This document shows, piece after piece, positions 12,777 through 59,629 of a DNA stretch of 64,000 bases. Numbering within the stretch: position 1 is the stretch's first letter; each line of letters begins with the position of its first letter. Origin of the DNA: Escherichia phage 348Ecol098PP; sequence record OR062947.1, one strand, 5' to 3'. The notes beneath the pieces were generated by a model. The model was not told the origin of the DNA and did no database searches. It saw nothing but the letters and a program-made list of their open reading frames with translations. Position numbers and translations under genes: made by a program.

Positions 12777-14461
12777 AATCATTTAAATTAAATCGTGTTC
12801 GTTATCAAAACATCATGTCGGTAGGTGGGAATCCTATTGACATCCAATTAGATAAAGTCCAAAAGACATTAATCACTGGTAAAAATGGTGGTGGTAAATC
12901 TACGATGTTAGAAGCCATTACTTTCGGACTTTTCGGTAAACCATTTCGTGATGTTAAGAAAGGGCAAATCATTAATAGCACGAACAAGAAAGAGCTCTTA
13001 GTTGAGCTTTGGATGGAATTCGATGGTAAAAAATACTTCATTAAACGTGGCCAAAAGCCCAATATTTTCGAAATCTCCGTTGACGGTGTTCGTCTCGATG
13101 AATCTGCCAGCAGTCGTGACTTCCAAGAAGAATTTGAACGTAGCATCGGAATGTCATACGCGTCTTTTAAACAAATCGTTGTGCTTGGGACGGCAGGGTA
13201 TACCCCTTTCATGGCTCTTAGCACCCCTGCTCGTAGAAAACTTGTCGAAGACCTTTTAGAAGTCGGCACACTCGCTGAAATGGATAAAATCAATAAGTCT
13301 CAAGTTCGAGAACTTAATTCCCAGGGACAAGTTCTCGATGCCAAGAAAGATGGTGTTATCCAACAAATTAAGATTTATAACGAGAATATCGAACGTCAAA
13401 AGAAATTATCTGGTGATAATGTAGCGCGTCTACAGAATATGTATGATGACCTAGCCAAAGAAGCTCGTTCATTAAAAGCAGAAATCGAAGAAGCTAATGA
13501 GCGACTACTTAATATCGTTCTTGATGAAGACCCTACTGAGGCATTCAACAAGATCGGACAAGAAGCATTCTTGATTAAATCTAAAATCGACTCATATAAC
13601 AAAGTTATTAAGATGTATCATGACGGTGGCACATGTCCTACTTGTGCGTCACAGTTGCACCAGGGTGACCCTATTGTCTCTAAGATTACCGATAAGCTTC
13701 ATGAATGTAATCACTCATTCGAGCAACTTACATGTCACAGAGATAATCTGAGTGTCCTAGTGGACGAATATAGAGCTAATGTTAAGACTAAACAGGACCT
13801 TGCATCTGATATTCGTACCAAGAAACAAGCAATGATTGCCACTATTGATAAAGCTAAGAAAGTTAAAGCTGCAATAGAACAAGCCTCGGCGGAATTTATC
13901 GACCATGCCGATGAGATAGCTTTGCTTCAAAAAGAACTTGATAAAATCATTAAAACAAAATCAGATATCGTTCTTGAAAAATACCATCGTGGTATTATCA
14001 CAGATATGTTAAAAGATTCTGGTATTAAAGGTGCTATCATTAAAAAATACGTGCCTCTGTTCAACAAGCAGATTAACCATTATCTTAAAATCATGGAAGC
14101 TGATTACGTGTTTTCTATTGACGAAGAATTCAATGAATCTATAAAATCACGTGGCCGCGAAGAGTTCAGTTATGCTTCATTTAGTCAAGGTGAAAAAGCA
14201 CGTATCGATATCGCGTTATTGTTTACATGGCGAGATATTGCTGAAAAGGTCTCTGGTGTTAGAATCAATACATTAATTATGGACGAAGTCATGGATTCCG
14301 CGACTGATTCTGAAGGTATTAAAGCTATTTCAACAATTCTTAACTCTCTAACCGATGCAAACGTGTTTATAATTAGTCACAGAGACCATGACCCACAAGC
14401 TTATGGACAGCATTTGCAAATGAGCAAAGTTGGACGATTTACTGTAATGAAAGCCTCTTAA
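12773..14461 (+). CDS. 46: recombination endonuclease subunit gp46 (Rad50/SbcC-like ATPase)
   Basis: 562 aa; Walker A GKNGGGKST, zinc hook CPTC, signature/Walker B near C-terminus. Confidence 0.92.
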   Translation: MKSFKLNRVRYQNIMSVGGNPIDIQLDKVQKTLITGKNGGGKSTMLEAITFGLFGKPFRDVKKGQIINSTNKKELLVELWMEFDGKKYFIKRGQKPNIFEISVDGVRLDESASSRDFQEEFERSIGMSYASFKQIVVLGTAGYTPFMALSTPARRKLVEDLLEVGTLAEMDKINKSQVRELNSQGQVLDAKKDGVIQQIKIYNENIERQKKLSGDNVARLQNMYDDLAKEARSLKAEIEEANERLLNIVLDEDPTEAFNKIGQEAFLIKSKIDSYNKVIKMYHDGGTCPTCASQLHQGDPIVSKITDKLHECNHSFEQLTCHRDNLSVLVDEYRANVKTKQDLASDIRTKKQAMIATIDKAKKVKAAIEQASAEFIDHADEIALLQKELDKIIKTKSDIVLEKYHRGIITDMLKDSGIKGAIIKKYVPLFNKQINHYLKIMEADYVFSIDEEFNESIKSRGREEFSYASFSQGEKARIDIALLFTWRDIAEKVSGVRINTLIMDEVMDSATDSEGIKAISTILNSLTDANVFIISHRDHDPQAYGQHLQMSKVGRFTVMKAS

Positions 14462-15174
14462 TGAGGCTTATGTTTACAGTTATCAAAATGCCAACGACGC
14501 ATATTAGCAGGGATCCCTATTTTATCGCAATGAGGACATTTAATTTTCTTGTCCTCTTTTTTCTTTCTGTTAGGATTTGATTTACAGAATTTTATATGCG
14601 GCTTTAACGCCGATAACTTAGTAGTTAAGCCACAAAACGGACAAGAATCTTCTTTCCAAATTTTCGTGGCCATGGTTTTAATTATTTTATCTTTTGTTTC
14701 TTGATCAAGTTTTACTATTTTAGGCGTAGGGCCTTGTTTACAGTTATCAAAATGCCAACGTCTCATGTTTCCTTCAGTGCCGGTTAAACCGCAGTGTGGA
14801 CATGTAATCTTTGGTTTATTTTTTGCCGACTCAGACATTTTCTTACGAGTTTCAGCAGTGAATTCTTTGTTCTTTTGAACTTCTTGATTCTTACGTCGAA
14901 GCCATCCAAATAATTTGTTTTTGCTTCTATCTGCTTTAGGAGATGAGATAGTCATCATACGAGCAGCATATATTAAAGAGGCATTATCTGGATGGATTTT
15001 TACCAACAGTTGATGTGCCAAATAATGTTCTTCCGGTGTTAAGTCTACTAAGTTTAAAGCATCATCACTTCCACCTAAACATTGTGGTATAATGTGATGA
15101 CGTTCTGTATAACCATCTAAACTTCTTGATTTAGCATTGGTGATAAGCTTTTCGTATATTGAGTTATAATTCAT
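14458..15174 (-). CDS. HNH homing endonuclease-like protein with duplicated zinc-finger modules
   Basis: HHIIPQCLGGSDDALNLVDLTPEEHYLAH HNH motif; three CPxCG modules, two ending RRWHFDNCK; convergent with gene 46. Confidence 0.75.
   Translation of the reverse strand: MNYNSIYEKLITNAKSRSLDGYTERHHIIPQCLGGSDDALNLVDLTPEEHYLAHQLLVKIHPDNASLIYAARMMTISSPKADRSKNKLFGWLRRKNQEVQKNKEFTAETRKKMSESAKNKPKITCPHCGLTGTEGNMRRWHFDNCKQGPTPKIVKLDQETKDKIIKTMATKIWKEDSCPFCGLTTKLSALKPHIKFCKSNPNRKKKEDKKIKCPHCDKIGIPANMRRWHFDNCKHKPH
14471..14496. repeat. 26-bp perfect direct repeat, copy 1 (copy 2 at 14736-14761) inside HNH gene
   Basis: TGTTTACAGTTATCAAAATGCCAACG found twice 265 bp apart. Confidence 0.85.
14736..14761. 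repeat. 26-bp perfect direct repeat, copy 2
   Basis: identical to 14471-14496. Confidence 0.85.
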
Positions 15175-15228
15175 TTACTAAATCCTTATTTGATACAGCA
15201 ACAGATAAATTGATAAACCTATTTATAT

Positions 15229-29570: not shown

Positions 29571-31013
29571 GTGGTAGAAATTATTTTGTCTCATCTAGTA
29601 TACGACCAGGCTTATTTTTCTAAGGTCTGGCCTTATATGGATTCTGAGTATTTTGAGCGTGGACCGGCAAAAAATGTCTTTAAAATTATAAAGAGCCACG
29701 TTAACGAATATAATGCAATGCCATCTATCAATGCGTTAAAGGTGGCTTTAGATAACAGTTCTTTAACTGAAGCCGAATATAAAGGAACTTCAGACCTAAT
29801 TGAAAAATTGGCTGATACTCCTGAAGACCACGAATGGTTGGTTAAAGAAACTGAGAAATATGTCCAGCAAAAAGCGATGTATAACGCTACATCCAAAATC
29901 ATTGAGATTCAGTCTAATGCTGAACTACCTCCAGAACAACGTAACAAGAAAATGCCTGACGTAGGAGCTATTCCTGATATTATGCGTCAAGCACTTTCAA
30001 TTTCGTTTGATAGTTATGTTGGGCATGACTGGATGGAAGACTACGAAGCACGCTGGCTTTCTTATCTGAACAAAGCACGTAAGGTCCCGTTCAAATTAAA
30101 CATTTTGAATAAAATCACTAAAGGTGGTGCTGAAACCGGTACACTAAACGTTTTAATGGCTGGTGTTAACGTCGGTAAATCTTTAGGCCTTTGTTCACTT
30201 GCTGCAGATTATCTTCAAACAGGTCATAATGTTCTTTATATTTCCATGGAAATGGCTGAAGAAGTTTGTGCTAAGCGTATAGATGCAAACATGCTTGACG
30301 TATCACTTGATGATATTGATGATGGTAACGTATCTTATGCTGAATATAAAGCCAAGATGGAAAAATGGCGTTCAAAAACAACATTAGGACGTTTAGTAGT
30401 TAAACAGTATCCTACTGGTGGAGCTAATGCTAATACATTCCGTGCATTGCTTAATGAATTGAAACTCAAGAAGAACTTTGTGCCATCTGTAATCATGGTT
30501 GATTACTTAGGTATTTGTGGGTCTTGTCGTATCAGAGTTTACACTGAAAATAGCTACACATTAGTTAAAGCTATCGCAGAAGAACTTCGTGCATTAGCAG
30601 TAGAATCTGAAACAGTTCTATGGACTGCAGCTCAAGTAGGACGTGCAGCATGGGATGCTTCAGACATGAACATGAGTGATATTGCAGAATCAGCAGGTTT
30701 ACCAGCAACGGCAGATTTCATGTTGGCCGTAATTGAAACCGAAGAACTTGCACAAGCTGAACAACAACTTATCAAACAAATCAAATCACGATACGGTGAT
30801 AAGAATAAGTGGAATAAATTCCTGATGGGTGTACGTAAAGGCAACCAGAAATGGATTGAGATTGAGCAAGAAGGCATGAACACACCTAACACAGTAAATG
30901 AAAACGCAGGTGCTCAGATGCGTCAGGCAGAGATGAATCGTACGGAACGCGTAGGTAAAGCCAAAGCAACACGTGCTGACCTAGATAGCTTAGCCAATGA
31001 GTTAAAATTTTAA
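29571..31013 (+). CDS. 41: replicative DNA helicase gp41 (DnaB-like), GTG start
   Basis: MVEIILSHLVYDQAYFSKVWPYMDSEYFE...; Walker A GVNVGKS; AAGGAG 5 nt upstream of GTG. Confidence 0.93.
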   Translation: MVEIILSHLVYDQAYFSKVWPYMDSEYFERGPAKNVFKIIKSHVNEYNAMPSINALKVALDNSSLTEAEYKGTSDLIEKLADTPEDHEWLVKETEKYVQQKAMYNATSKIIEIQSNAELPPEQRNKKMPDVGAIPDIMRQALSISFDSYVGHDWMEDYEARWLSYLNKARKVPFKLNILNKITKGGAETGTLNVLMAGVNVGKSLGLCSLAADYLQTGHNVLYISMEMAEEVCAKRIDANMLDVSLDDIDDGNVSYAEYKAKMEKWRSKTTLGRLVVKQYPTGGANANTFRALLNELKLKKNFVPSVIMVDYLGICGSCRIRVYTENSYTLVKAIAEELRALAVESETVLWTAAQVGRAAWDASDMNMSDIAESAGLPATADFMLAVIETEELAQAEQQLIKQIKSRYGDKNKWNKFLMGVRKGNQKWIEIEQEGMNTPNTVNENAGAQMRQAEMNRTERVGKAKATRADLDSLANELKF

Positions 31014-31019
31014 TAAAAA

Positions 31020-31038
31020 GGAGACTTCGGTCTCCTTT
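31020..31038 (+). terminator. UUCG tetraloop hairpin after gene 41
   Basis: GGAGAC-TTCG-GTCTCC-TTT. Confidence 0.45.
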
Positions 31039-31042
31039 CGGG

Positions 31043-31072
31043 GTTTACATCTTCCTCTAGGCATGATATGAT
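31043..31072 (+). promoter_or_regulatory. early-type promoter
   Basis: GTTTAC-N17-(A)TATGAT. Confidence 0.45.
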
Positions 31073-31101
31073 GTACTTACACCAACCAAGAGGAGAACAA
31101 A

Positions 31102-31419
31102 ATGAAAACCATCGATTGTAAAGCAGAATTTAAGATTTTTTATCACGGTTCAAGTAGTTCAGCTAACATCGAAAACATGCTTTGTCCTCCTGAGGAAACA
31201 GGAGTTCTGTCTGAAACCGGACGTAAGAAAAACTTGGATCGTGTATTCTTTACTGAAGATATCGGTTTAGCAAAGATTTATGCAGGACGAGCAGCACGCT
31301 CTTATGGAGGTGAACCACGTCTCTATCGAGTAATTTCTCCGGTAGACGTAGTTCAAATGAATAATACTAAAGGTGCTACAGTTTATCACGCTGAATGGGC
31401 ATTTTGTGAGGAAATATGA
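31102..31419 (+). CDS. hypothetical protein
   Basis: ORF track; GAGGAGAA RBS. Confidence 0.65.
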   Translation: MKTIDCKAEFKIFYHGSSSSANIENMLCPPEETGVLSETGRKKNLDRVFFTEDIGLAKIYAGRAARSYGGEPRLYRVISPVDVVQMNNTKGATVYHAEWAFCEEI

Positions 31420-31604
31420 ACAAATTAACTAAAGTTACTTTTATCGGTTGGTTTAAAAGCGGTGAGATGTTCACTAAAGATATCATGTTATCAGGTGATC
31501 GCGAAGAAATCGAGTGGGTTACGGTACAACTTGCTGAAGTGAACAACGCATTAGTTAAAGCATTTGTTAATGACGAGAAAGTTTTCGAAGCAGATTTTCA
31601 ATAA
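31416..31604 (+). CDS. hypothetical small acidic protein
   Basis: ORF track; ATGA coupling. Confidence 0.6.
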   Translation: MNKLTKVTFIGWFKSGEMFTKDIMLSGDREEIEWVTVQLAEVNNALVKAFVNDEKVFEADFQ

Positions 31605-31616
31605 TTTTAAATAACT

Positions 31617-31647
31617 GTTTACAAGCACCACATACTGTGTTACTATC
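31617..31647 (+). promoter_or_regulatory. early-type promoter
   Basis: GTTTAC-N17/18-TACTAT. Confidence 0.4.
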
Positions 31648-31674
31648 TTTCTATCAACTACAGAGGAAATTGAA

Positions 31675-32043
31675 ATGAAAAAATTAATCGCTTTAGCAAT
31701 GGTATTTGGATTAACCGGATGTGGTGCCCACGGCTTTATCCCTAATAACGTTGGCCAACTGATTTACAATCCGAATGTTAAACAGTATGACCAACCTAAA
31801 GTTGAAGTGGAAGACCCGGTTACTGTAGGTAATCGAATGATTCAAGCTGATACCCATGCTCAACGTTATCGTGACTCTGATACTGTAGCATTGTCAAAAG
31901 AACAACGCGTTAAAGAACATTGTCTACAGGCTACTGAAATCGCATTCATTCGCTATGTTGAAACAACTGGTAAAGAGCCTACCCAGAAACAAATCGTGAA
32001 TAACTACGTCCAGTGTATTGAACGTTTAAACAAATTTAATTAA
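31675..32043 (+). CDS. lipoprotein (lipobox LTGC)
   Basis: signal peptide MKKLIALAMVFGLTGC. Confidence 0.7.
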   Translation: MKKLIALAMVFGLTGCGAHGFIPNNVGQLIYNPNVKQYDQPKVEVEDPVTVGNRMIQADTHAQRYRDSDTVALSKEQRVKEHCLQATEIAFIRYVETTGKEPTQKQIVNNYVQCIERLNKFN

Positions 32044-32046
32044 TTG

Positions 32047-32077
32047 GTTTACACCAAAGTTAAAACAAGATACTATA
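32047..32077 (+). promoter_or_regulatory. early-type promoter
   Basis: GTTTAC-N17-ATACTAT. Confidence 0.4.
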
Positions 32078-32104
32078 AACATAACAAATCAAGAGGAAAT
32101 TAAC

Positions 32105-32353
32105 ATGGAATTATTCGTAGCTAGTTCAGTAGCAGTTTTAATCGCAGGTATTGGTTCAATCATCATTTACATGTTGCCTTGGGTAATCGCACTTATTCGT
32201 GGCACAAAAAGCACAACAGCAATCTTCTTTGTATCTTTACTCTTTAACTGGACGATGGTTGGTTGGATTGGAACTTTAATTTGGTCTATCGTTGCCGAAA
32301 AGAAATCTGCTCAGCAGCCTCAACAAGTAATTATTATTCGCGAAAAAGAATAA
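32105..32353 (+). CDS. inner-membrane protein (two TM helices)
   Basis: hydrophobic segments; GAGGAAA RBS. Confidence 0.7.
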   Translation: MELFVASSVAVLIAGIGSIIIYMLPWVIALIRGTKSTTAIFFVSLLFNWTMVGWIGTLIWSIVAEKKSAQQPQQVIIIREKE

Positions 32354-32357
32354 ACTT

Positions 32358-32387
32358 GTTTACATTATAGATGGACTATAGTATAGT
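32358..32387 (+). promoter_or_regulatory. early-type promoter
   Basis: GTTTAC-N17/18-TATAGT. Confidence 0.45.
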
Positions 32388-32416
32388 AGTCCTATCAAAT
32401 CAACTAAGGAGTTAAA

Positions 32417-32710
32417 ATGAAAAAGTTATCATTGGCAGCAATCTTACTTGCAGTATCATGTGCACCGGCTCCAGTTACGGCAGGTTATGATAAAGACCTC
32501 TGTGAGTGGTCAATGACTGCAAATCAAGAAGATGTTGAACAACAAATCTTCTCTGATATCATGAACATCACTAAACGAGACCGTCCTAATATGGTTAATA
32601 AAGTTGTTGAACAACTTAAGTCTGGCGGTATCATGCAGTACAACTATGTTTTGTATTGTGACCCTAATTTCGATAACAAAGATATCGTAACCGAAATCAC
32701 AGGTGAATAA
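32417..32710 (+). CDS. secreted/periplasmic protein with signal peptide; Sp (spackle)-like by size and neighbourhood
   Basis: MKKLSLAAILLAVSCAPAPVTAG signal peptide; 97 aa. Confidence 0.6.
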   Translation: MKKLSLAAILLAVSCAPAPVTAGYDKDLCEWSMTANQEDVEQQIFSDIMNITKRDRPNMVNKVVEQLKSGGIMQYNYVLYCDPNFDNKDIVTEITGE

Positions 32711-32711
32711 T

Positions 32712-33362
32712 ATGATTTATTATATGCACAAAAATGCGCCATTTAAATATGGTAAATTTCCTAATGCACAATGTTATAATATAACGCCGAATGAAAATAA
32801 TAACGGATACCATCTCGGTGTAATTTTTGTAATTGTTAAAGATAACGAAATCGTTGCCTGGGCAGATTTTAAAGGTACAACATACGATGTTAATCCTGTG
32901 CCTTTCACATATTACAATATAATGGATTTGGCATATGATTATAATTGGTTTAATCATGACACGTTGGCTCATATTGAAGGTGTAGGATTTGACATCTCTT
33001 ATTCTAGCTATTCATTATGTCCTATGAGCCGAGCTCACGGTAAAGATGTATCATATCTTTCAATTCGGAAACGTGTAAACTTCAAACGTAGTACAGAGTA
33101 TGTTGGTGGACTCTTTGTTAAAGATAATAAAATAACCCGTATTAGTTATCCTTTAAGTGTGGGCCAAAAAGATGTTGATGTTGATTTGGACTTAACTGAA
33201 AATAACATTAATCGTATTGCTTCTGTATATTTTGATATCGATGAAAAAATTGTAGTGTGTGGATACGAATTACCACCTGAAGAAAAGGCTGAAGCAATTG
33301 AAGTCGAATTAGAAATTTCTGTTGATGACCAAATATTTAATGCATTTATGAATCGAGGTTAA
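32712..33362 (+). CDS. hypothetical protein
   Basis: ATG 32712 in ORF-track frame. Confidence 0.65.
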   Translation: MIYYMHKNAPFKYGKFPNAQCYNITPNENNNGYHLGVIFVIVKDNEIVAWADFKGTTYDVNPVPFTYYNIMDLAYDYNWFNHDTLAHIEGVGFDISYSSYSLCPMSRAHGKDVSYLSIRKRVNFKRSTEYVGGLFVKDNKITRISYPLSVGQKDVDVDLDLTENNINRIASVYFDIDEKIVVCGYELPPEEKAEAIEVELEISVDDQIFNAFMNRG

Positions 33363-33363
33363 A

Positions 33364-33561
33364 ATGACTACTGCAATTTGCACTGGTTCTAAAATTAGTG
33401 TTTTTACAAGTTTTGAAGATTATGAAGTTGTTTCAAAACACCAATGTCATATTAGCGTAAAAGCTAATGATGGTGTAATTTGGAATATTCCACAGTATGA
33501 AGGCACCACATATGAAGTCACAAATATAAATGGTGACAAAGCAATCTTTGTAATTGATTAA
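33364..33561 (+). CDS. hypothetical protein
   Basis: ORF track. Confidence 0.55.
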   Translation: MTTAICTGSKISVFTSFEDYEVVSKHQCHISVKANDGVIWNIPQYEGTTYEVTNINGDKAIFVID

Positions 33562-33580
33562 ATATACTCAGGAGGTACCT

Positions 33581-34048
33581 ATGGGTATTATTAACACTGC
33601 AATAGATTCTGTTTACGCATATAAGTTTATTCGACTAATGCAAAAACCTTTTACCGAATGGAAAGCATACGAAGCCAAAATCATCGATGAACGTGGAAGT
33701 GTTCTTAAACGTCCTTCTACTCCCGAAGAAAAAGCGGCGTATACACCTTTTCATGCTTCAGTTCGTTCAATGAAGCGAATGATGAGCACTGTTCCAGGTC
33801 TTAATGGAATGGCCTCAATGATGTCTGCCTGGAGTGCTGTAGCTTCACGCTATAACATTACTGAAGAACAACAGAAAGAAATATTTAAAGAACTCCCTTT
33901 ATTTGAGGATATGGTTGCTGGTGATTCAGGCGGCAGTCCTCAAGCTATTGCATCAGGAACAACTACAGGTGCAGTCGTAAATAAAGGTCCAGAACAAATT
34001 CCTTCCAAGAAAAGAAAGCGAATTAAAGTAAATATTAATAAGTTGTGA
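33581..34048 (+). CDS. hypothetical protein with basic C-terminal tail
   Basis: ATG 33581 after AGGAGG RBS. Confidence 0.65.
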   Translation: MGIINTAIDSVYAYKFIRLMQKPFTEWKAYEAKIIDERGSVLKRPSTPEEKAAYTPFHASVRSMKRMMSTVPGLNGMASMMSAWSAVASRYNITEEQQKEIFKELPLFEDMVAGDSGGSPQAIASGTTTGAVVNKGPEQIPSKKRKRIKVNINKL

Positions 34049-34087
34049 TATGATGGCCTTAAATTAATAAGGCCTCTGGAGAATACT

Positions 34088-35110
34088 ATGGCTGAATGGA
34101 TAGATAATGAATTTGCTTATCGTGCGTTTTCTCACCTCCCTCGTTTTAGACAAATCAATAATTCAAGCACATTTAAATTAACATTTCGATGTCCAGTTTG
34201 TGGCGACTCTCAGACAGATGCAATGAAAGCTCGCGGATGGTATTACGGTGGTACTCCTGGTAATGTACATTGCTATAACTGTCAATACCACAATACAATT
34301 TCCGGATACTTAAAAGAGTATGATGAAGAGCTTTATCGCGAATATCTAATGGAAGTTCGTAAAGAAAAAGCTAGAATGGAACCAAAGATTGAAAAGGTTC
34401 CTGAAGCTAAGCCTGAGCCAGAGAAAAAGACTATAAATTCTTTGCCGTCTTGTTCTCGTCTGGACAAGTTGCCTGAAGAGCATCCTATTGTGAAATATGT
34501 TAAGTCTCGGTGTATTCCTAAAGAATCATGGAACAGATTATGGTTCACATTAGAATGGCCCAAATTGGTCAACAAGATTCAACCTGGTACGTATAAGAAA
34601 GAGATTCCCGAACCACGGTTAGTGATTCCTATTTTTAATAAAGATGGGAAGGCCGAGTCATTCCAAGGACGTGCACTTCGTAAAGATGCTCCTCAGAAAT
34701 ATATCACTATTAAAGCGTTTGAGTCTGCAACAAAAATTTATGGTGTTGAACGTGTTAAGGAAGGAGACGTCTGGGTAATGGAAGGCCCTATTGATAGTTT
34801 ATTCATACCCAATGCAATCGCTATTACAGGCGGCTCAATAGATTTAGACGTGGTACCATTTAAAGAACGTCGGGTATGGGTAATGGATAATGAACCTAGG
34901 CATCCGGATACTATAGCTCGCATGAAGCGATTAGTTGATGCAGGCGAACGTGTCATGTTCTGGGACCGAGCTCCATGGAGATCAAAGGATGTGAATGATA
35001 TGGTAATGAAAGAAAATGCAACACCACAAGAAATTTTAGAATATATGAAACAGAATATTTCAAGTGGGTTGCATGCTAAAATGAGATTATCTCGTTATTC
35101 GAAGATTTAA
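34088..35110 (+). CDS. 61: DNA primase gp61
   Basis: IDNEFAYRAF.HLP.F.Q.NNSSTFKL.FRCPVCGDS zinc ribbon and TOPRIM region match T4 gp61. Confidence 0.93.
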   Translation: MAEWIDNEFAYRAFSHLPRFRQINNSSTFKLTFRCPVCGDSQTDAMKARGWYYGGTPGNVHCYNCQYHNTISGYLKEYDEELYREYLMEVRKEKARMEPKIEKVPEAKPEPEKKTINSLPSCSRLDKLPEEHPIVKYVKSRCIPKESWNRLWFTLEWPKLVNKIQPGTYKKEIPEPRLVIPIFNKDGKAESFQGRALRKDAPQKYITIKAFESATKIYGVERVKEGDVWVMEGPIDSLFIPNAIAITGGSIDLDVVPFKERRVWVMDNEPRHPDTIARMKRLVDAGERVMFWDRAPWRSKDVNDMVMKENATPQEILEYMKQNISSGLHAKMRLSRYSKI

Positions 35111-35304
35111 ACAAGCCCTATAATAGCAAAGGCCAAATCAACTACAGTATCCAATGGAACAGAAGGAACCATAACACCATGGGCAACTAACAATGGTGCA
35201 ATCCCGAAGTTCCATGAAATAATGCCACCTACAACTATTGCAGCGATAGCAGTTTTCTTTTTATTGCCTTTAATAGCGTTGATTAACGATGGAAGTTTAA
35301 ACAT
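35107..35304 (-). CDS. small membrane protein (65 aa) encoded antisense to the early gene block
   Basis: strong AAGGAG RBS 7 nt upstream on minus strand; two hydrophobic helices; fills the 61-56 intergenic region. Confidence 0.5.
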   Translation of the reverse strand: MFKLPSLINAIKGNKKKTAIAAIVVGGIISWNFGIAPLLVAHGVMVPSVPLDTVVDLAFAIIGLV

Positions 35305-35393
35305 AATATCTCCTTAGTTACCTATTATTTATTACGCTTTATAAAATTAATGTTAGAATTAACTTCTCTTATACTGAATTGAAAGGAAAAATA

Positions 35394-35915
35394 ATGGCAC
35401 ACTTTAACGAATGTTCACAACTTATTTCTGGTGTTGATAAAGCAGAAGAAGCTTATTTTAATGCTCTGATTCACGAAGATAAAGACCCACTGCAGGTAAT
35501 GCTTGATATGCAGAAATCTTTACAGGTTCGTCTGGCAAATGACAAGCCTGAACATAACAAACATCCTGATGAATTGGCCACTGCTGGCGATGTTGTTGAT
35601 TGGCTGCGTAATCAGAAAGATTATATTGATGATGAATTCCGTGAACTGCTGACTTCACTTGGTGGTATGAGCAATGGTGAAAAAGCCGCCAGCAGTGTAT
35701 GGAAGCCGTGGAAGGCACAACATGCTGAATATCGAAATCGTCGTATCGATGAACTGTCTCCTGAAGACCAGCTTGAAATTAAATTCGAGATGATTGATAT
35801 CCTCCACTTTGTTCTGAATATGTTCCAAGGTCTGGGTCTTTCCGCTGAAGAAATCTTTAAACTTTACTACTTGAAAAACCAACACAACTTTGAACGTCAG
35901 GATAATGGTTACTGA
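35394..35915 (+). CDS. 56: dCTP pyrophosphatase gp56
   Basis: MAHFNEC...DKDPLQVMLDMQ...LEIKFE..DI.HFVLNMF.GLG..AEEIFKLYYLKN matches T4 gp56. Confidence 0.92.
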   Translation: MAHFNECSQLISGVDKAEEAYFNALIHEDKDPLQVMLDMQKSLQVRLANDKPEHNKHPDELATAGDVVDWLRNQKDYIDDEFRELLTSLGGMSNGEKAASSVWKPWKAQHAEYRNRRIDELSPEDQLEIKFEMIDILHFVLNMFQGLGLSAEEIFKLYYLKNQHNFERQDNGY

Positions 35916-58696: not shown

Positions 58697-58969
58697 ATGA
58701 ATAAAGACATTGAAATCGTACGTGAAATTATTACTATTGCTTCTATTTTGATTAAATTCTCTAGGGAAGATATTGTTGAAGACCGAGCAAGTTTCATCGG
58801 ATTCTTGAATGAGATTGGAATTAAAAAAGATGGTCGGCAGCTAAATCAGAATTCTTTTAGAAAACTAATTACAAATTTAACTGCCGAAGAAAAGAAAACA
58901 CTGATTAGTGAATTCAATGAAGGTTTTGAAAATATTTATCGTCATTTAGCGATGTATTCTAACAACTAA
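58697..58969 (+). CDS. asiA: anti-sigma-70 factor AsiA
   Basis: MNK.I..VREIIT.ASILIKFSREDIVE.RA.FI.FLNEIG...GR.LNQNSFRK...L...K.TLI.EFNEGFE..YR.L.MY matches T4 AsiA (90 aa). Confidence 0.9.
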   Translation: MNKDIEIVREIITIASILIKFSREDIVEDRASFIGFLNEIGIKKDGRQLNQNSFRKLITNLTAEEKKTLISEFNEGFENIYRHLAMYSNN

Positions 58970-59629
58970 TTATTTAGCCCTTCCTAGTATTCGGACCGCT
59001 TGGTTGCATATAGCCGCTAAGCGATCTTCCTCAAGTATATTATTCCCCTTATACCAATACATCGTCACAGTTCCAGCATAGATGTTATCCAAATTAAAGT
59101 ATGGACAACTATACATATAAGAAAGTTCGGCAGTTTTAGATTTTGTAGGCAAAAATGCAAATTCTGATTTAGACGAGAAATGACGGCCACTTAAATGAAT
59201 TATATATTCATTGGCCGTTTTATCCACCGGGAACCCCCCAAGGGACTTTTCAGAAATTGTGCTAGGCAGTTTGCCTTCATAAGCTATAAGGTCGACGAAA
59301 TAATTTAAGTTTTTAGGTCTGAAAGAATACACAGCACTAAAATCTGCACCAGATGAGATATGAACTATTTGCAGTTGTTCTAGAGCCGCAGATTCAAAAC
59401 GTAAAGCTCGTTCTTTTTGGATTATTTCAGTATAAGTATCATACTTAGATCTTACATAATAATCCAGCAAAATACTTCCTTTGTACCATATTAGTGCCAT
59501 TAGGAACAAAAGAATAATTACCGCTACTCGGGACATTAAAACCTTTCCAGTAGCGTTATCTTTGAAAATACGATCTAGCAACCCAAATAGAATATCACTA
59601 GGCGAAAATGACACTTTTGGTGTTGCCAT
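58970..59629 (-). CDS. t: holin T
   Basis: 219 aa; SFSPSDILFG.LDR.FKDNATGKVL.SRVAV..LLF.MA..WY... matches T4 holin. Confidence 0.92.
   Translation of the reverse strand: MATPKVSFSPSDILFGLLDRIFKDNATGKVLMSRVAVIILLFLMALIWYKGSILLDYYVRSKYDTYTEIIQKERALRFESAALEQLQIVHISSGADFSAVYSFRPKNLNYFVDLIAYEGKLPSTISEKSLGGFPVDKTANEYIIHLSGRHFSSKSEFAFLPTKSKTAELSYMYSCPYFNLDNIYAGTVTMYWYKGNNILEEDRLAAICNQAVRILGRAK

Follow-up and report, generated by a model that had tools for sequence, protein, structure and literature searches.

The closest described relatives of the gene considered here are found in T4-like phages. RB69ORF029w was listed with a TMHMM helix at residues 21-41 and no signal peptide (Nolan 2006), and dam.1 is a row of the allele table in Petrov et al. 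2010. Across the searchable literature (RB69ORF029w, RB32ORF030w, dam.1, T4 Ribo-seq, unannotated ORFs, and TSS maps), the gene is mentioned only in the transmembrane (TM) table of the former and the allele table of the latter, and no transcript, ribosome-footprint, peptide, or functional data were found. Sequence records carry it under several names. In the T4T record HM137666 the ORF is named dam.1 (T4Tp032), and in the RB51 record the ortholog is given as "RB32ORF030w, similar to RB69ORF029w". In HX01 (D299_gp163) and NBG1 it is annotated as a hypothetical protein, a label that is repeated in hundreds of phage records.

The window analyzed here is the whole 64-kb stretch (64,000 nucleotides) of Escherichia phage 348Ecol098PP. 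It belongs to Mosigvirus (RB69/HX01-like), and the region around the ORF is about 98% identical to many Mosigvirus coliphages. The minus-strand ORF starts with an ATG at 35304 and encodes 65 aa plus a stop codon, and its translated product is MFKLPSLINAIKGNKKKTAIAAIVVGGIISWNFGIAPLLVAHGVMVPSVPLDTVVDLAFAIIGLV. It is the Mosigvirus ortholog of RB69ORF029w and T4 dam.1, an already catalogued, conserved hypothetical gene. The match to PHROG 2024 ("unknown function"; E=2.6e-27) covers the whole protein and the whole profile, with residues 1-65 aligned to positions 1-65 of 65. A tblastn match to the ORF was found in 723 phage records, the proteins of phages mobillu, SF, and JK45 are 100% identical to the window's copy, and a protein search for the family gave 115 clusters at 90% identity. 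With the earlier RB69, RB51, T4T, HX01, and NBG1 annotations and PHROG 2024 in place, the gene is not new and locating it is no discovery.

Table 1. Coordinates of the dam.1 ortholog, its putative signals, its neighbors, and the T4 homolog (window positions unless an accession is given).
Feature	Coordinates	Strand	Basis
dam.1 ortholog CDS, 65 aa, predicted bitopic inner-membrane microprotein	35107..35304	-	PHROG 2024, dN/dS, AF2
Shine-Dalgarno AAGGAG of the small ORF, 5-nt spacer (atatt) to ATG	35310..35315	-	sequence
T4-type late-promoter-like AATAAATA (TATAAATA with A at -13), 21 nt before ATG	35326..35333	-	motif statistics, layout
Putative gene 56 middle promoter: MotA-box-like CGCTTTA (35335-35341), 12-nt spacer, -10 TAGAAT (35354-35359)	35335..35359	+	consensus match only
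Gene 61, DNA primase, convergent neighbor	34088..35110	+	PHROG 47 E=8.9e-102; HX01, NBG1 annotation
Gene 56, dCTPase/NTP pyrophosphohydrolase, promoter-side neighbor	35394..35915	+	PHROG 173; HX01 annotation
T4 dam.1	NC_000866 17738-17938 (L003 3239-3439)	+	homolog, unannotated

The original prediction of a 65-aa ORF on the minus strand, convergent with gene 61, is confirmed from the sequence (Table 1). The stop codons of the two genes overlap within 35107-35110, and the ORF occupies most of the 268-nt gap between genes 61 and 56. The AAGGAG that had been noted upstream is indeed present (35315-35310), but it lies 5 nt from the ATG and not 7 nt. Spurious minus-strand ORFs of 72-86 aa, longer than the dam.1 ortholog, overlap genes 61 and 56. 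The length of the small ORF is therefore unremarkable, and the case for it was built on comparative evidence. Two other annotations or reading frames in the gap were set aside. A 31-aa plus-strand ORF (35222-35317) was regarded as spurious. The HX01 RefSeq entry D299_gp164 (25 aa, minus strand; L001 2827-2904, equivalent to about 35326-35403 of the window), which covers the start of gene 56 and the promoter region between it and dam.1, is probably an artefact of annotation. The early region had also been described as otherwise uniformly plus strand. This does not hold, since a 238-aa homing endonuclease gene (14458-15174, PHROG 655 E=1.2e-66) lies within it on the minus strand and is preceded by a canonical TATAAATA at 15220-15227 on the same strand.

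The belief that T4 has no opposite-strand gene at this place is true only of the reference annotation. No feature is annotated between dam and 61 in NC_000866. The gap nevertheless contains a 66-aa ORF, 55% identical to the window copy, that is preceded by AGGAGG and overlaps the gene 61 stop, and this homolog is the dam.1 of T4T. Annotation of dam.1 is also absent from AF158101, MT984581, the T4 reference proteome, and the Dhakavirus JS10 (L017 ~1772-1972). Omics data mapped to NC_000866, AF158101, or the T4 reference proteome are therefore blind to it. In T6 (L004 2492-2692), the codon aligned with the T4/RB51 start is ATT and the AGGAGG before it is intact. The annotated T6 protein begins at the next Met, five codons downstream. 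The T6 copy could have a non-canonical start or encode an N-terminally shortened protein. Two automatic names were found to be without support, "putative head morphogenesis protein" in a T6 record (AP018814) and "Holin" for the phage OE5505 copy in UniProt.

The position of dam.1, on the opposite strand, convergent with and directly downstream of primase gene 61, is kept in at least eight Tevenvirinae genera: Tequatrovirus, Mosigvirus, Gaprivervirus, Dhakavirus, Moonvirus, Jiaodavirus, Slopekvirus, and Gelderlandvirus. Homologs from different genera share the reading frame, a length of 52-70 aa, the start context, and the motif at 18-55% identity. An AGGAGG or AAGGAG Shine-Dalgarno stands at the equivalent place in all 12 lineages examined. 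Between the window and T4 there are 34.8 synonymous differences at 47 synonymous sites (pS 0.74, which is saturated; pN 0.33), giving a dN/dS of about 0.14, and values against T4 range from about 0.1 to 0.25. T4 and RB51 differ by six synonymous and two non-synonymous changes. Protein identity between the window and T4 is 55% for Dam.1, 49% for Soc, 74% for gp61, and 72.5% for gp56. The gap filling, conservation, purifying selection, and promoter motif raise the small ORF above chance, and on this comparative evidence it is a genuine protein-coding gene.

All 22 diverse members of the family alignment match PHROG 2024, and an exhaustive HMM search over 1.84 billion representatives returned only 19 hits of 33-99 aa, among which the complete ones that were examined share the Dam.1 architecture. 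Three subtypes can be distinguished. In Gaprivervirus VR26, subtypes A and B occur as a tandem pair (L006 2001-2198 and 2207-2407), an arrangement that is compatible with oligomerisation. In a metagenomic phage (L012 2305-2508 and 2501-2698) the order is B then A, and the two genes overlap at ATGCTTAA. This overlap suggests translational coupling, and perhaps hetero-oligomers.

The gene is preceded by a late-promoter-like element in a genome where this motif is strongly avoided. Counting both strands, the window contains only eight copies of ATAAATA. VATAAATA was observed four times against 22.3 +/- 4.7 expected from dinucleotide-preserving shuffles of the window, a depletion of more than five-fold. 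This suggests that late-promoter variants with a base other than T at -13 are avoided as well. The four sites (35326, 58933, 61003, and 63522) are all on the minus, late-gene strand, and the copy at 35326 is the sole VATAAATA of the 58-kb early region. The site at 58933-58940, GATAAATA, is antisense to asiA, within the 3' end of that gene and a short way downstream of t. Canonical TATAAATA is also found four times in the window, in each case 20-45 nt upstream of a gene (49, the homing endonuclease gene, soc, and the holin gene t). The layout of t is TATAAATA, 20 nt, and ATG, with AGGAGG in between; that of the small ORF is AATAAATA, 21 nt, and ATG.

Similar elements were found in other lineages. 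NATAAATA or TATAAATA lies 12-33 nt upstream of the gene in 9 of the 12 lineages scanned and additionally in JS10. NATAAATA is present in T4, RB51, VR26, M719, KEN39, L012, L014, and JS10, and in Slopekvirus Potts1 a canonical TATAAATA occurs 19 nt upstream. The corresponding sequence is ATTAAATA in Moon and S16, and L013 shows only TATTAATA. The base at -13 is other than T in most lineages, and it is A in the window. For RB69-type phages this position is reported to be A or T, and the late-promoter HMM of that study lists no site for RB69ORF029w (Nolan 2006).

The late element stands back-to-back with the putative MotA-type promoter of gene 56 and overlaps its AT-rich part, so part of the conservation of the late element could stem from that promoter. 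The equivalents in other phages are better than that of the window: a near-perfect TGCTTTA-11-TATAAT is found in RB51, and TGCTTCA-11-TATAAT in VR26 and M719. The equivalent T4 promoter primes oriA according to the record annotation. From the motif and its placement, the small ORF is most likely transcribed late by gp55-type polymerase. Downstream of the ORF, a scan of minus-strand positions 31000-35100 gave no terminator-like site. In KEN39, L012, and L014, a GC hairpin separates the ORF from the primase gene.

The protein was predicted to have a single membrane-spanning helix. The AF2 model (22-sequence alignment, pLDDT 81) contains helices at residues 3-11, 15-41, and 51-61. Two hydrophobic helices had been proposed, and the first of these is upheld by TMHMM (21-41) as well as by AF2 (15-41). 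The second hydrophobic stretch (about residues 51-61) is only 11-15 residues in length, which is too short to span a bilayer. The predicted architecture is one full TM helix (about residues 18-41) plus a short C-terminal helix. Among 122 family members, the mean number of K+R is 4.8 on the N-terminal side of the TM helix and 0.15 on the C-terminal side. This strong positive-inside asymmetry across the family leads to the prediction of an N-in/C-out bitopic protein. The proposal of a late-expressed membrane protein thus gains indirect support from the element 21 nt before the ATG, a motif avoided in the genome, and from the positive-inside signal.

A number of positions in the protein are nearly invariant. 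W31 is kept in 120 of the 122 members, N32 in 121, P37 in 121, G43 in 120, and P47 in 117. An acidic residue at position 52 (D52 in the window) also belongs to the positions kept in 117-121 of the 122, and G63 is found in 113. The window protein has the features that define the family, namely a length of 52-70 aa, a basic N-terminus, one TM helix, and W-N-x4-P-x5-G-x3-P-x4-[DE]. The Asn within the helix and the juxtamembrane turn, which is rich in prolines, point to a specific contact that is either helix-helix or interfacial. Searches of Pfam, NCBIfam, PDB sequences, and Foldseek (BFVD, PDB) returned only family members or noise and no protein of known function.

Members of the family are also found outside T4-like phages, and these distant members match PHROG 2024 at E of about 1e-10. 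An E. coli prophage lineage that is unrelated to T4 carries a 67-70-aa member and was found in 25 of 5426 complete E. coli genomes; this prophage had no match among sequenced phage isolates. This member closes the tail-gene arm, and no other prophage gene separates it from the host junction. There are two integration sites, yegD-alkA (L018, L019, and L022) and the yliH-yliI-gst region (L023 and L024). In L020, the member is embedded in the tail module, with a minor-tail-like gene after it. In two metagenomic phages the order is tail-tip genes, a gene for a TM plus coiled-coil protein, an endonuclease VII-like gene, and then the family member, which points the same way as the late module. These contexts are consistent with a membrane function of the late or moron type. 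The TM plus coiled-coil neighbor (DUF2730 by PGAP, with weak Rz-like spanin matches at non-T4 loci) was considered as a possible connection to lysis, but this was rejected, as all scores were below the curated cut-offs.

The ORF is a real gene, the dam.1 ortholog, that is probably transcribed late and encodes a predicted inner-membrane microprotein. Late in infection, gp55-type RNA polymerase would initiate at AATAAATA, back-to-back with the gene 56 middle promoter, and ribosomes would bind at the strong AAGGAG site of a short leader. As no terminator follows the ORF in this phage, the minus-strand transcript would run on antisense into gene 61. The basic N-terminus (KGNKKK) would be cytoplasmic, and the TM helix would be followed by a tail of about 24 residues with a short amphipathic helix at the periplasmic face. 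W31-N32, P37, G43, P47, and the acidic residue 52 could form a specific intramembrane or juxtamembrane contact surface. Since this putative surface is near-invariant, the protein most likely binds itself or another membrane protein. It could possibly modulate an end-of-infection envelope event, such as lysis timing, lysis inhibition, or membrane integrity or sealing, a guess drawn from timing and location because there is no homology to proteins of known function.

Several other explanations can account for parts of these observations. One is that the ORF is a spurious reading frame in an AT-rich spacer that does no more than carry the promoters and terminators of genes 61 and 56. Spurious ORFs of 72-86 aa do occur nearby on the same strand, and the region is unannotated in the T4 reference, MT984581, and JS10. 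Chance reading frames would not be expected to keep their frame, length, start context, and motif across genera with a dN/dS below 1, and the HMM search matches that were complete and examined share one architecture, which makes this explanation very improbable. Another possibility is an antisense or regulatory element that lowers the mRNA of primase (61) or of 61-56 read-through late in infection, with the ORF being incidental. The overlapping stops of the ORF and gene 61 and the lack of a minus-strand terminator-like site at 31000-35100 would let a transcript from 35326 enter gene 61, and early read-through from 61 to 56 would be complementary to the ORF. However, it is the protein sequence that is under selection, with saturation at synonymous sites, the invariance is of amino acids and not of nucleotides, and a strong Shine-Dalgarno is present in all lineages. 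The GC hairpin in KEN39, L012, and L014 would halt the overlap. The distant members are co-directional in late operons without a convergent partner, which argues against an antisense-only role. A main function as an antisense regulator, one of the roles first offered for the ORF, is improbable for these reasons.

An additional explanation accepts the membrane protein and assigns it a different task. It could be a superinfection-exclusion or membrane-protection factor, expressed late or from the prophage, that blocks, from the inner membrane, DNA entry or envelope damage caused by other phages, as small exclusion proteins of the inner membrane do. A small predicted inner-membrane protein with a conserved periplasm-facing motif is consistent with this, as are the prophage copy at a typical moron position in two integration sites and the location of the T-even copy in the same region as spackle. 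On the other hand, no similarity to Imm, Sp, or annotated exclusion families was found, and the L020 gene lies within a tail module and is not a separate moron. Exclusion is needed early, and a late promoter suits this poorly. A role in immunity or superinfection exclusion had been suggested earlier; the apparent late timing of the gene argues against an early one like that of Imm. Exclusion or membrane protection is unlikely, though less so than the antisense and spurious explanations.

The combination of facts has some value: a conserved, apparently late, predicted membrane microprotein that T4 itself carries outside its reference annotation, that is kept at one fixed position in at least eight genera of enterobacterial T-even-type phages, and that is found in a temperate prophage lineage as well. 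The gene could prove to be a further participant in late envelope processes (lysis, lysis inhibition, or exclusion). As a speculative proposal, the Dam.1 family may be an overlooked late envelope factor (lysis timing or inhibition, sealing, or exclusion) that acts through the WN...P...G...P surface on a phage or host membrane partner. If true, such a factor would be common to T-even phages and an unrelated E. coli prophage lineage, and it could perhaps be a part of lysis timing or lysis inhibition that has been missed so far.

The protein can be compared with a number of known systems. Type I toxins of the Hok/Ldr/TisB type resemble Dam.1 in being small hydrophobic membrane peptides with cis-antisense RNA, as the dam.1 mRNA would be complementary to a convergent or read-through transcript. 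Membership in this group was rejected, given that Ldr_toxin matched 1 of 22 members at E=0.1 (noise) and that the antisense arrangement is absent in several lineages. T4 Imm and Spackle are small envelope-located phage proteins, as is predicted for Dam.1, and the Spackle gene is only a few genes distant. Both imm and sp are expressed early from the early strand, whereas dam.1 lies on the late strand and follows a late-promoter-like element. They share no homology with Dam.1, and Dam.1 has no Pfam match, although T4_Spackle (PF25676) was detected on neighboring genes of related loci.

The holin gene t (58970-59629, minus strand), which is present in the same window, offers a closer parallel in its organization. 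Both t and the dam.1 ortholog are solitary late-strand genes for known or predicted membrane proteins, with a nearly identical layout of late-promoter motif, Shine-Dalgarno, and ATG. The T holin is N-in with a single TM helix, the same topology as predicted for the window protein. It differs in size (219 aa vs 65 aa) and shows no sequence similarity. Unlike T, the window protein is without a large periplasmic domain and without a charged C-terminus. No holin profile of Pfam or PHROG matched it, one distant member reached only E=0.0023 against phrog_3427, and the neighbors are primase and dCTPase rather than a lysis cassette. Membership among the holins was rejected, as the C-terminal side, with 0.15 K+R on average, terminates in a hydrophobic helix instead of a charged tail. 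The closest systems are RB69ORF029w, RB32ORF030w, and T4T Dam.1. These are orthologous to the window protein, have the same size, position, and TM prediction, and differ from it in nothing of substance.
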